A DNA stretch of 64,000 nt from an uncultured archaeon (GTDB taxonomy: Archaea > Asgardarchaeota > Lokiarchaeia > Sigyniarchaeales > SOKP01), in the NCBI GenBank assembly GCA_964388035.1, contig CAYLZE010000005.1:35742-99741 (forward strand). The letters run 5' to 3'. Shown here piece after piece: positions 5,514 through 60,150 of this stretch. Positions within the stretch are counted from its first letter, which is position 1; each line of letters opens with the position of its first letter. The translations under genes and the position numbers were made by a program. The notes beneath the pieces were generated by a model. It was not told the origin of the DNA. It searched no databases and worked only from the letters and a program-made list of their open reading frames with translations.

Positions 5514-6599
5514 TCATGAATAAATGTATTCTTTAACGCTATGATCCTTATCCATGATATCAGCTAAGGCACTATCAAAATGTTTTTGGGTAATCTTTTT
5601 GTTCCTTTCTCTTAAACACTTTATTCCCGCTTCGGTGCACAAAGCTTTAATGTGGGCTCCACTAAATCCATCTGTCACTTTTGCAAGTCGGTTAAAATCC
5701 ACATTGTCTAAATTCATCTTTCTGGTGTGTATTTTTAAAATGCTCAATCGAGCTTCTTCATTAGGTAACCCGAATCGTATTATCCTGTCAAATCGCCCCG
5801 GTCTCAAAATCGCAGGATCAAGCACATCTTCGCGATTAGTAGCCGCTAAAAACATTATACCTTCCGTGTTGGCAAATCCATCCAATTCACTCAACAATTG
5901 CATGAAAGTCCTCTGTACCTCCCGGTCGCCCTTATATACCTCGCTTGTACGCTTTACTGCTATGGCGTCGATCTCATCTATGAAAATTATGGCAGGAATG
6001 TTGATTTTTGCCAGGGTAAAAACTTCTCTGACCATCCTCGAACCCTCCCCGATAAATTTCTGTACTAAATCAGATCCTACTAAATGAATGAATCTCGCAT
6101 TTGTTGAATTTGCAATGGCTTTTGCTAAGAGAGTCTTTCCCGTTCCGGGAGGACCGGATAATAGCGCTCCTGAGGGAGCTTCAATCCCTATCTCTTCAAA
6201 AATCTCAGGATGCAATAAGGGTAATTCTATGACTTCTCGAATGGCCTGTATTTGGTCGTCCAATCCCCCAATATCTTCAAAAGTCACGTTCGGATTCTCC
6301 ATTAATTCCATGGCCGCCACGTGCCCTCGAATGTTTTTTGATAAGATTTCTATAATTTGAAAACTACTTCCATGGAGACTGACCAGATCCCCCGGTGATA
6401 AATTCTCCAAATCGGGTCTGGGCGGTATTAGAATGCGATTACCGGGAGCATGAGAAATAACTACACGCCCATCTTTTAATACCTTCTCAACCGTCCCAAT
6501 GATGAGAGGGTTTTCTTTCATTCGATTTAAGATGGTTCTAAGTTGCTCATTCTCTCGCTCTAATACGCGAATTCTTTTTATATAATCTGATTCAGTCAT
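5514..6599 (-). CDS. pan: Proteasome-activating nucleotidase (AAA+ ATPase)
   Basis: Coiled coil + OB fold; Walker A GPPGTGKT, pore loop KFIGEG, Walker B IFIDEID, SRH DPAILRPGRFDR, C-terminal HbYX motif (IYS). Confidence 0.92.
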   Translation of the reverse strand: MTESDYIKRIRVLERENEQLRTILNRMKENPLIIGTVEKVLKDGRVVISHAPGNRILIPPRPDLENLSPGDLVSLHGSSFQIIEILSKNIRGHVAAMELMENPNVTFEDIGGLDDQIQAIREVIELPLLHPEIFEEIGIEAPSGALLSGPPGTGKTLLAKAIANSTNARFIHLVGSDLVQKFIGEGSRMVREVFTLAKINIPAIIFIDEIDAIAVKRTSEVYKGDREVQRTFMQLLSELDGFANTEGIMFLAATNREDVLDPAILRPGRFDRIIRFGLPNEEARLSILKIHTRKMNLDNVDFNRLAKVTDGFSGAHIKALCTEAGIKCLRERNKKITQKHFDSALADIMDKDHSVKEYIYS

Positions 6600-7044: not shown

Positions 7045-8254
7045 ATGGCTGAAGAAGAAAGCTTTTTAAGTGCAAAAGCATTAGTGGTTGACAACGGTAC
7101 AGGAATCTCTAAAAACGGATTTGCTGGTGAGGACCAACCCCGTTCCGTGTTTCCAACTTTAATCGGGTACCCCAAATATGAAAGTATAATGACTGATGTC
7201 GAGCATTATACGAGAGAATACTATATCGGGGAAGAAGCAATGCAACTCAAGGGTGTATTGAAATTAATGTTCCCCGTAGAACACGGAATCATAGAAGATT
7301 GGACTGCCATGGAAAAAATATGGCACTACACCTTTTATACGGATTTGAGAATTGATCCCAGCGAACATCCCGTTCTCTTAACCGAAGCCCCCTTAAATCC
7401 ACGACCAAACAGAGAGAAAATGGCAGAAATCATGTTCGAAACTTTCAACGTGCCCGCGCTTTATGTTGCCATGCAAGCAGTTCTTTCCCTTTACGCGTCT
7501 GGTAGAACCACCGGATGTGTTATTGATATTGGCGACGGAGTGTCTCACGTTGTACCTATTTTTGAAGGTTTTGCGTTGAGCCATGCAATTCAGAGAATTG
7601 ATTTAGCCGGCAGAGATATTACCACTTATCTCCAACGTCTTTTACGACAAAAAGGTCATTCCTTTACGACTTCTGCGGAAAAAGAAATTGTTCGAGATAT
7701 CAAGGAAAAACTCTGCTACGTGGCCATCGATCCTGAAAAAGAAATGATGCTCTCCAAAAAAGTGGCGGGCATGGAAAAGAGCTACATGCTTCCTGACGGT
7801 GAAACCATTAATGTAGGTGTCGAACGATTTTTAGCTCCTGAATGCTTCTTTAATCCTTCCGTCATTGGAAAGGAATTGGAACCATTAGACGATGTCGTCG
7901 TAGGAGCAATTTCCGAGTGCGATGTTGACTTGAGAAGAGATTTATACAGCAACATTGTACTCTCTGGTGGATCTACCATGTTCCCCGGAATAAAGGAACG
8001 TTTGACTAAAGAAATAAAAGAACAGATCCCCGAATCAGTAGATGTAAAAATAATCGCACCTCCCGAAAGAATGTATTCCGTTTGGATCGGCGGCTCAATC
8101 TTGTCGTCTCTTAAAACCTTCCACCGAATGTGGGTCACTAGACGCGAAACCGAAAGAGATCAAAGAATCTCTCGGCGCGAGTACAAAGAAATGGGCCCAC
8201 AAGTAAAGAGAATCGAAAGAGATTCGATTTCGCTTAATTCATCGCTGCTTTTAA
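7045..8254 (+). CDS. Lokiactin (Asgard actin); predicted spliced CDS join(7045..8148,8182..8206,8238..8254), 381 aa. The unspliced frame runs to 8286 (413 aa)
   Basis: Actin signatures [44 protein letters not shown]; removing two insertions restores ...[20 protein letters not shown], matching eukaryotic [21 protein letters not shown]. Confidence 0.95.
8149..8181 (+). other. Candidate archaeal BHB/BHL-type mRNA intron 1 in Lokiactin (33 nt, phase 0)
   Basis: Central helix CGCG 8143-8146 / CGCG 8176-8179; bulge AA^A; inner stems CCGA/UCGG and GAGAU/AUCUC; 3' AG^U; splicing gives CGC GAA UAC (R-E-Y). Confidence 0.75.
8207..8237 (+). other. Candidate archaeal BHB/BHL-type mRNA intron 2 in Lokiactin (31 nt, frameshifting)
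   Basis: Central helix AAGU 8201-8204 / GCUU 8232-8235; bulge AA^A closed by G8208-C8231; inner stem GAAUCGAA/UUCGAUUU; 3' AA^U; splicing gives GUA AUU CAU CGC UGC UUU UAA (VIHRCF*). Confidence 0.8.
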
Positions 8255-8280
8255 GCACGATGCGGGCCCTTCAAATCGCG
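8240..8280 (+). promoter_or_regulatory. Structured stop-codon/3' UTR element of Lokiactin mRNA
   Basis: Hairpin CAUCG(C)UGCUU-UU-AAGCACGAUG over the true stop; GGGCCC 8264-8269 complements 8193-8198; UCGCG 8276-8280 complements CGCGA. Confidence 0.55.
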
Positions 8281-8286
8281 AATTAA

Positions 8287-8315
8287 TTTTTTTTTAATTA
8301 TTTAAATTTTTTTTA
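8287..8315 (+). terminator. Oligo-T archaeal terminator after Lokiactin
   Basis: Two long T runs immediately after the structured 3' end. Confidence 0.5.
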
Positions 8316-8852: not shown

Positions 8853-9137
8853 GAAGAGCAGGGCAAAGAACTTCCCAAGCAGAAGGAAAAGAACTTAAAA
8901 TTCCTGACGAAAGAACAGGGCAAAGAACTTCTCAAGCAGAAGGAGAAAAACTTAAAATTCCTAACGGAAGAGCAGGGCAAAGAACTTCTCAAGCAGAAAA
9001 GGGAGATTTTAAAATTCCTAACGGAAGAGCAGGGCAAAGAACTTCTCAGGCAGAAGAGGGAGATTTTAAAATTCTTGACGGAAGAGCAGGGCAAAGAACT
9101 TCTCAAGCAGAAAAGGGAGATTTTAAAATTCTTGACG
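8853..9137 (+). repeat. 57-bp coding tandem repeat x5 plus a partial 6th (19-aa unit EEQGKELLKQKREILKFLT)
   Basis: Units gaagagcagggcaaagaacttctcaagcagaaaagggagattttaaaattc(c/t)t(a/g)acg directly visible. Confidence 0.92.
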
Positions 9138-10835
9138 GAAGAGCAAGGAAAGGAACCCATCGAGCAGAAAAAGGAAGTAAGAAAAAAAGAGTTTGATTTT
9201 CCTATGAAAGAGCAAGTAGAAAAACGAATGAAAGAGAAAAAAGCATCCATTTTACCAGCTAAAGAAAGCGAGATCAAAAGACAAAACAATTTGGATATTT
9301 TTGAAACGGAAAATAGGAAGATTATACTTAAAGAAAAAGCTCGAGAGCTAGAAAACTCAGTAGGGATTGGCAAAGACTTGAAAGAACGAGATCGGTTAAA
9401 AAGAGAGCAAAATTTAGATGAGCTTTCAAAAGGAAAGATTAATGAAAAAGATATAAAACAAAATAAAAAAGAAGTAATTAAAAACCACAAAGAAGGATAT
9501 TATTATGAAAAAGAGTCGATCCTAAAAGTAAAAGAGAATCCATCTAAGCTTAAACCTAAAGAGCAGATAGAGATTCAACATAATCAAAAAAATACACTTG
9601 AATTTAATACTAAAGAGAAAGGACAGGAAAAGCAAAAGAAGGTGATTAAAGAGCAAGAAAAAGAAGAGACCGAAAATAATGCAATTAAATTATTTGAGGA
9701 TTTACGAAAGGAACTCGGCATTTTAAAGGGAGAGCCTAAAACAATATCTGATCCCAATTTAAGTAAAAGTTTGGGACGGGCTCCCAGCTATGTAATGACG
9801 AAAAAGGCACAAATTAAAGAAAATCCTAAATTTCAACTTTCCTTAAAGGAACTATCAGGATTTCAAGAACACTTGAATTTGAAGTATGGAAAGTTAGCCA
9901 GTCGATGTTCTGAGATAATCGAAAAGTATAAAGTAGCTAATCCAGACTTAAAAGAATATGCTCATGAGCAACATGAGGTTAGTAAGCCCCATTTTTTTTC
10001 TAAAGAAAACATGTTATCTAATACACCAGAAGGGAATAATGCATGCTATTTTTACGGATTTCTCCATGCAGATGGTTATAGAAAAGGTAGGTACGTAATA
10101 GGCAGTAGGATTCATCCGCATGATAAATTAGTTTTAGAAAAAATATGTGACGCGATTGGTATTGATCGAGAGAAAATAAAAGTTAGTGAAAACGTAGCGC
10201 AGTTAGAGTTCAAGTGTAAACCAATGCACGCCGACTTAAAAGAGGTTAAGGAGTATTGCATTCCTAACTTTTTAAGACCAAATAGAAAGAAAGTGCTGCG
10301 TTGGCTTCATGGTTTCTATGATGGAGATGGTACACAAGGTCGGACAAATTTTGGATCAGCACATAAAGAAATCTTGATTGATGTTAAGAAGTATTTCGGA
10401 ATAGAAAATGAAGTTTTAAAAACTCTGGAGAAATATACTTATGTCGATAAAGCTGGAAAAACACATGTTAGAAATGAATATTGGACATTAAGCATTGGTC
10501 CAAAGATATTTAATGAAATGCTGCTTTCTAATCCTTCTGGTGGATTACCTAGAAAATATTCTTTCAAGCAGGAGAAAGATGAATCATATAAAAGGTTAAA
10601 AAGAAATGTTGTTATTTTTGAGAAAAGACTCGGAATGCCACTTCAAGAAGCCCTATATAAATATCGGGTTAGCCAATTTAGGGAAATGTTAGGATCGAGG
10701 TCTACATCATTGCATAGGTTAATTACAGAACGAAAGTTAGAACTACCCCCTAAATCATATTGGAAGGATAAACCTACAATTTGGCCAAACAATGAAGTTT
10801 ATAAAGATTTAAAGGATAAACCATTACATGAATAA
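9075..10835 (+). CDS. Free-standing double-motif LAGLIDADG endonuclease-like protein with long Lys/Glu-rich N-terminus (frame open from 8655; true start probably upstream of 9075)
   Basis: Motifs YFYGFLHADG and WLHGFYDGDG about 85 aa apart. Confidence 0.8.
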   Translation: MTEEQGKELLKQKREILKFLTEEQGKEPIEQKKEVRKKEFDFPMKEQVEKRMKEKKASILPAKESEIKRQNNLDIFETENRKIILKEKARELENSVGIGKDLKERDRLKREQNLDELSKGKINEKDIKQNKKEVIKNHKEGYYYEKESILKVKENPSKLKPKEQIEIQHNQKNTLEFNTKEKGQEKQKKVIKEQEKEETENNAIKLFEDLRKELGILKGEPKTISDPNLSKSLGRAPSYVMTKKAQIKENPKFQLSLKELSGFQEHLNLKYGKLASRCSEIIEKYKVANPDLKEYAHEQHEVSKPHFFSKENMLSNTPEGNNACYFYGFLHADGYRKGRYVIGSRIHPHDKLVLEKICDAIGIDREKIKVSENVAQLEFKCKPMHADLKEVKEYCIPNFLRPNRKKVLRWLHGFYDGDGTQGRTNFGSAHKEILIDVKKYFGIENEVLKTLEKYTYVDKAGKTHVRNEYWTLSIGPKIFNEMLLSNPSGGLPRKYSFKQEKDESYKRLKRNVVIFEKRLGMPLQEALYKYRVSQFREMLGSRSTSLHRLITERKLELPPKSYWKDKPTIWPNNEVYKDLKDKPLHE

Positions 10836-59253: not shown

Positions 59254-60150
59254 TTGGGTGGAAGATTCATTATATGTAAAATTTTTGAAACTCTAATTGA
59301 ACCCAATTTTAAACAACAAAATTTAAAACAATTTTTAATGAATAATCTTCCTAACTTTGCACGAGGAACTATAGAAAATCCAGGAATTGGTTTTAGGCTT
59401 ATAGAAAATTATGATTTACCAAGATATTTTAGAGATGATTTTGACTATGAAGATTTCTTAAATAAATTACTGATAATTGAATATCAATTAGAAATACATA
59501 AATTAATACATTTAAATGGGGAAGATAAACCAACGTTAATAAAGGATTATATAGGATATATATTTTTTATATCTCCCAATCTTTTAATAATTAAGGGTAA
59601 TAAAGAAGATTGTAAAACTATTTTAGATAGTTTTTTTGCAGTTACAAGATTCATATTTCAAAGGATTGAAGTTTTTTCATTTGAATCGGATTTTTTTATA
59701 AAATTAATAGAAAAGTTGTGGTTTAAGCAATTTAAATTTGAAGATGATTTTAGAATTAGTTATTTAATGAAATTAAAGACTTTAACAAATGAAGGTATAA
59801 CTAGAGTTATAGCATATATCGACAATCCTTTTCCAAGATTTTTATCAAGACACGCAGCCCAAGCAATTTTAAATAATTATCAATTCGAGTATTGTAAGTA
59901 TAGACTCATTTTAAAAGATGTATATTTTACTATTGAACTTGATCGTAAAGGTCCTGTTAATATAATGCAGGATTGTGGAGACTTTGTATGGTTTAGTAAA
60001 AATGAGCGAGCAATTCATGGAAGTTATATTATTTATCGTTTGGTAAATTATTTCAATTATTGGAAAAATTTGCCTCCAAATAGTAAAAATATTTCCGAGA
60101 AATTTAAAAACTCTCTCCGAGAATATTTAGATGCTCTAGAAGACGAATAA
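59254..60150 (+). CDS. Hypothetical protein
   Basis: 298-aa open frame, AT-rich. Confidence 0.65.
   Translation: MGGRFIICKIFETLIEPNFKQQNLKQFLMNNLPNFARGTIENPGIGFRLIENYDLPRYFRDDFDYEDFLNKLLIIEYQLEIHKLIHLNGEDKPTLIKDYIGYIFFISPNLLIIKGNKEDCKTILDSFFAVTRFIFQRIEVFSFESDFFIKLIEKLWFKQFKFEDDFRISYLMKLKTLTNEGITRVIAYIDNPFPRFLSRHAAQAILNNYQFEYCKYRLILKDVYFTIELDRKGPVNIMQDCGDFVWFSKNERAIHGSYIIYRLVNYFNYWKNLPPNSKNISEKFKNSLREYLDALEDE

Follow-up and report, generated by a model that had tools for sequence, protein, structure and literature searches.

A 3' UTR that folds back onto the coding sequence of a twice-interrupted Lokiactin gene and may brace its second mini-intron

The window, by which we mean the whole 64,000-nucleotide stretch analysed, comes from a Promethearchaeota (Loki-type Asgard) genome, here G000. 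The gene at 7045 is a Lokiactin, and near-identical Lokiactin proteins are found across the host's family. Divergent from it lies a gene for a PAN-type proteasome ATPase (5514-6599, - strand). The features needed for the analysis are the following:

7045..8148, + strand: Lokiactin exon 1; the spliced CDS encodes 381 aa with the family C-terminus
8143..8146, + strand: intron 1 central helix, exon strand, pairing with 8176-8179; bulges 8147-49 and 8180-82 (from sequence and folding)
8149..8181, + strand: intron 1, 33 nt, in frame, HBh' type; site also occupied in G007, G024 and L063
8182..8206, + strand: micro-exon, 25 nt
8193..8198, + strand: P2 5' strand, formed by the Met-Gly-Pro codons; its end lies 2 nt short of the intron 2 central helix
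8201..8204, + strand: intron 2 central helix, exon strand, pairing with 8232-8235; bulges 8205-07 and 8236-38
8207..8237, + strand: intron 2, 31 nt, frameshifting, HBh' type; homologous to the G020 intron
8238..8254, + strand: last exon, 17 nt, with the true stop at 8252-8254
8240..8262, + strand: P1, stop-burying hairpin of the last exon and first UTR bases
8264..8272, + strand: UTR side (3' strand) of P2 at 8264-69, extended by 8270-72 pairing with 8188-90; closes a three-way junction
8276..8280, + strand: P3 strand, not conserved; in folding models a rival of the intron 1 central helix
8286..8330, + strand: U-rich tracts, probable transcript end
9075..10835, + strand: free-standing LAGLIDADG-like endonuclease gene (by homology)

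Orthologous actins share one near-invariant C-terminus, which the window matches only when 8149-8181 and 8207-8237 are removed. Because removal of both mini-introns restores the family C-terminus, we take 8252-8254 to be the stop, a placement that rests on orthology. An earlier, sequence-only reading had chosen the same stop and counted the fold of the 3' UTR in its favour; the position stands, but its proof lies in the orthologues with identical C-termini and not in the fold. The near-invariance of this C-terminus rules out a read-through protein to 8286 as the main product, and interruption of the same sites in independent genomes rules out an assembly artefact.

Both inserts are built alike: a central helix of 4 bp, two bulges of 3 nt and a stem within the intron, with a contiguous exon helix of zero length (h = 0). 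Judged by sequence, they are relaxed BHB (HBh') mini-introns and candidate EndA substrates. For intron 2, the central helix (8201-04/8232-35) has four of four pairs here and three of four in G020, and cutting after the second base of its 3-nt bulges yields a CDS end exactly like that of intronless orthologues. The intron-side helix h' is a 9-bp stem with one compensatory pair relative to G020; in the folding model it competes with a shifted register. Intron 2 departs from the strict hBHBh' motif in that P2 starts 2 nt off, across the junction. The genome encodes two EndA paralogues. Alignment of the catalytic paralogue with Aeropyrum EndA extends through the specificity loop. This loop permits cutting of relaxed HBh' motifs (PMC5829648), so such motifs should be cleavable in this host. 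A third BHB with 8277-80 as central helix was considered and rejected: it has no adjacent inner helix, and the cut would ruin the C-terminus.

Genome scans by motif alone could not tell BHB introns from decoys; accordingly, the analysis was confined to nine candidates lying in genes with a Pfam hit, and an orthologue check covered six of them. These further BHB-type inserts of 29-32 nt (L245 on G000:C38, L242 on C23, L240 on C32, L241 on C4, L243 on C109, L244 on C89, L237 on C55, L238 on C50 and L239 on C63) interrupt genes for ubiquitin E2, TFE alpha, AMP phosphorylase, acyl-CoA dehydrogenase, thiolase, DUF1512, an MFS transporter, zinc dehydrogenase and aldolase. The ubiquitin E2 and TFE introns are common to G018, and the AMP phosphorylase intron to G007 and G020. 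In five of the nine the local exon helix measures 0-1 bp, so an exon helix is unlikely to be required for removal; enclosure by nearby pairing is significant in three, but not overall (Stouffer z 1.4). A scan for further introns near stop codons returned noise (114 against 91-104 in decoys). The ubiquitin E2 gene of G007 (L273/L275, G007:C183:3223-3566) is split elsewhere, near query residue 64, by a probable further intron.

Downstream of the stop, the UTR pairs with the coding sequence. An unconstrained fold of 8100-8300 holds all of the helices (z -3.0; 2 of 200 shuffles). In an ensemble over 8090-8300 the probability of P1 (8240-49/8254-62) is 0.96-0.98, that of P2 (8193-98/8264-69) 1.0, that of the P2 extension (8188-90/8270-72) 0.58 and that of P3 (8176-80/8276-80) 0.69, the alternative 8143-47/8276-80 reaching only 0.04. 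The UTR-coding interaction amounts to -11.6 kcal/mol, where shuffled sequences average -3.1 and -3.9; it is equalled by one in 500 shuffles under mononucleotide and dinucleotide nulls alike, and ranks first of 137 Asgard actin 3' ends. In the predicted fold intron 2 is enclosed by a three-way junction that the UTR completes, while P1 sequesters 8251-56, the complement of the intron 2 3' splice site (8232-37). These pairings had been proposed from the letters of the window, and every segment of them lies where it had been placed.

The same reading drew attention to the UTR as GC-rich and complementary to coding sequence. It is indeed 65% GC, at the top of the range among actin ends; a GC-rich element at this place is, however, common. 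An own UTR hairpin between stop and U-tract occurs in 69 of 125 related actin ends, and the best matches to the window UTR, after the sister genome, are mostly hairpins of the form GCCC-loop-GGGC. Such Lokiactin hairpins share with the window a GC-rich stem of similar sequence, placed after the stop and before U-tracts; they differ in that the stem of the window pairs with coding sequence and encloses a splice site. To judge from this resemblance, the element may be the family hairpin turned onto the coding sequence. A search of Rfam gave no significant match and a bacterial-type terminator scan no match; a stable stem (P1 and P2) nevertheless stands directly upstream of the U-tracts, and folding predicts that both helices persist in spliced mRNA.

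These properties invite the reading that the fold-back is a mere 3' terminal stem, concerned with stability or termination and older than, or indifferent to, intron 2. The HBh' motif of the intron would then suffice for its splicing, and the UTR would have been co-inherited because it sits between the intron and the linked endonuclease gene. We regard this as a possible, though tentative, explanation. It draws on the likeness to the family hairpin, on the frequency of self-hairpins and of buried stops (34 of 115 ends) among related actins, on the persistence of P1 and P2 after splicing and on the other introns that do without exon helices. The evidence that sets intron 2 apart comes from folding models and from comparison of alleles.

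In this genome the model gives the central helix of intron 2 a probability of 0.68 when the UTR is included and of 0.13-0.20 when it is left out. Mutation of P1 or P2 lowers it to 0.21-0.30, and shuffled UTRs equal the real one in 3% of cases. Even with the UTR, the cleavable register of intron 2 costs about 2 kcal/mol. The equivalent calculation for G020 shows no gain: the central helix has a modelled probability of 0.02 with the UTR and 0.08 without, and the mispairing equivalent to 8251-56/8232-37 wins in the model.

Alleles were sought by pattern searches of 161 genomes of the class and 400 of the phylum (Asgard), by a metagenome scan and by protein searches. Across the 400 Asgard genomes and the metagenome scan, the intron 1 site is occupied in G007, G024 and L063, and the intron 2 site elsewhere only in G020; the one additional copy of the intron-2 allele lies on an ENA contig identical to G020 over this region. 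A perfect 6-bp UTR complement of the Met-Gly-Pro hexamer is present in both intron-2 alleles, in none of the three alleles with intron 1 only and in none of the 125 ends without an intron in the last 63 nt. G020 has P2 in an unchanged register, again with 2 nt between it and the central helix. On the coding strand of P2, variation is possible only at the Gly wobble position, where the pair is C-G in the window, U-A in G020 and a G.A mismatch in the intronless G018. That the perfect P2 occurs only with intron 2, and that both intron alleles preserve pairing at its variable position where the intronless one has a mismatch, argues against a stem indifferent to the intron.

The comparison is nonetheless a small one. 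Covariation in P2 comes down to one pair and one event in three sequences, and 90 of 500 shuffles score as high, so that it is not significant. Intron 2 and the intron of G020 are identical at 22 of 31 positions; since the intron is homologous and the same endonuclease gene lies next to both, we consider that the two alleles share descent and are not independent. Where an intron falls within the last 63 nt, a coding-UTR hairpin buries the stop in every case (five alleles); among the other ends it does so in 34 of 115. Kin among these are not independent. Introns of Thorarchaeia and Hermod-type actins lie further upstream and the ordinary UTR self-hairpin is retained; bracing by the UTR is therefore not general. 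In the intron-bearing G024 (L214) the UTR folds back, and the self-contained UTR hairpin of its intronless sister G023 (L018) is lost.

G018 belongs to the same genus, is sister in the gene tree and has no actin intron. Its UTR is homologous and keeps P1 and seven of the eight P2 pairs, which would suit a terminal stem that serves no intron. The fold-back of G018 may, to go by sequence, be a relic of a lost intron; equally, it may be older than the intron. Although G018 shares two other mRNA introns with G000, it is without one that G000, G007 and G020 have in common; the orientation of its actin to PAN is also reversed, and the two together fit secondary loss.

Persistence of the fold in G018 also raises the thought that the fold-back came first and made the site permissive, introns being gained or kept where a coding-UTR stem isolated the site; the pairing would then be a precondition rather than an adaptation. 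Asgard tRNA introns preferentially occur where the motif can form (10.64898/2026.10.13.758758), and the three of nine other introns enclosed within strong exon stems point the same way. Against this stand the signs of loss and rearrangement in G018, and the clade of G020, in which P1 is present and P2 absent. We consider this order of events improbable.

The sequence-only reading had held that the UTR supplies the exon-side scaffold that intron 2 lacks locally. What speaks for such a role is the perfect P2 in two of two intron-2 alleles against none of 125 ends, the one compensatory pair and the rise of the central helix to 0.68 in the model; what limits it is the shared descent of the alleles, the near-complete P2 of G018, the want of any gain in G020 and the mRNA introns without exon helices. 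Taken together, the comparisons and the folding models make a supporting role for the UTR plausible, at about even odds, with thin comparative support.

The explanation that we favour is that the 3' UTR is a dual-use terminal stem, derived from the GC hairpin that precedes the U-tract of many Lokiactin messages and pairing here with coding sequence instead of with itself. Intron 1 would fold locally before the UTR is made and be cut independently of it. In the pre-mRNA, P1 would occupy the last exon and the stop region and so keep them from mispairing with the 3' splice site of intron 2, and P2 would clamp the micro-exon onto the UTR. Together, P1 and P2 would make intron 2 an arm of a three-way junction and favour the cleavable fold, much as the cloverleaf of a tRNA presents a non-canonical intron. 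A relaxed-specificity (alpha-beta)2 EndA would cut both bulges and a ligase join the exons; the brace would improve folding or yield without being strictly required. Once splicing is complete, P1 and P2 would stay as an ordinary 3' protective stem. We put the probability of this explanation as a whole at roughly 0.5; it supposes that the Lokiactin transcript is spliced, that it folds in vivo as predicted and that the fold affects cleavage.

The endonuclease gene provides a further line of comparison. Relatives of about 30% identity occur in 43 of the 161 class genomes, and the closest homologue found (L303:1465-1858:-), at 62%, lies about 107 nt behind a G020-type actin, in the opposite orientation. 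That homologue adjoins the G020-type actin only; other homologues are 26-40% identical. Linkage of this kind would by itself carry the UTR along with intron 2, as the terminal-stem reading has it. The last codons of G000 and G020, however, show no excess identity and thus no recent co-conversion. The link between intron and endonuclease gene must then be old, and P2 has been maintained while the coding sequences diverged by about 20%, which counts against simple co-inheritance. Collaborative homing in phage (PMC10448857) resembles this arrangement in its ORF-less intron in an essential gene, its adjoining free-standing endonuclease gene and its occurrence in two lineages; there the intron is of group I, whereas here it is EndA-type, gene orientation differs between genomes and homing is putative. 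A 57-bp tandem repeat (8853-9175) lies at the front of the LAGLIDADG-like gene.

A stronger version would make the UTR an obligatory, co-evolving part of the splice site: a tRNA-like junction would be required for removal of the last actin intron, the C-terminus of actin could form only once the UTR had been fully transcribed, and the endonuclease gene would travel as one unit with the intron and the UTR. We think this unlikely.

The brace is the new part; the splicing system beneath it is already known. The cbf5 pre-mRNA intron of Crenarchaeota (PMC2738675) is likewise a short intron of a coding gene with a relaxed BHB, cut after the second bulge base by a hetero-oligomeric EndA. It lies within the coding region, whereas the last exon of Lokiactin has 17 nt, the enclosing helix comes from the 3' UTR by way of a three-way junction and splicing is predicted. 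HBh' tRNA introns, cut by (alpha-beta)2 EndA with an L1/CSL loop (PMC5829648; 10.64898/2026.10.13.758758), also have a central and an intron helix, no contiguous exon helix and one bulge opening into a multibranch junction, and junction-type tRNA introns are abundant in Asgard archaea (10.64898/2026.10.13.758758). The difference is that the Lokiactin junction is built of mRNA coding sequence and UTR and not of a tRNA cloverleaf (PMC5829648). Within the library searched, neither Lokiactin introns nor UTR-assisted BHB splicing turned up as the subject of a paper. If the bracing explanation is true, it shows how a message in a prokaryote can carry an intron so close to its stop, only a few codons away, with non-coding sequence giving the structural context that a tRNA normally gives; it would be a long-range cis element for mRNA splicing, on the actin gene of the closest prokaryotic relatives of eukaryotes.

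It had further been proposed that the distal UCGCG invades the central helix of intron 1 and so orders or gates the two splicing events. In silico the effect is large: inclusion of 8276-80 takes the central helix of intron 1 from about 0.9 down to 0.0-0.19, and mutation of the segment restores it. Equal disturbance is nevertheless produced by 30 of 200 shuffles, and the effect is not above chance. P3 stays at 0.98 after removal of intron 2, so the block on intron 1 would remain and splicing of intron 2 would give no release. Neither G018 nor G020 retains the segment, the three other intron-1 alleles are indifferent to their UTRs in the folding models, and the intron 1 motif is complete about 95 nt before UCGCG is transcribed. 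We therefore hold this part of the proposal to be unsupported and very improbable.

Three minor observations may be added. The distal UTR contains a 6-nt palindrome (8276-8281) that differs from that of G018 (L031) at two symmetric positions, the palindrome being kept. Mini-introns occur at further sites in other Asgard actins (L214, the second of G024; L102; L194/L223 of G134; L101; L256; L264-L269), and one actin intron is common to six genomes of one family outside the class. Elsewhere in the window, a weak BHB-like candidate (59948-59980, + strand) has three G-U pairs in its central helix and is probably due to chance; its removal would close a 250-codon frame with a CaaX-like tail.
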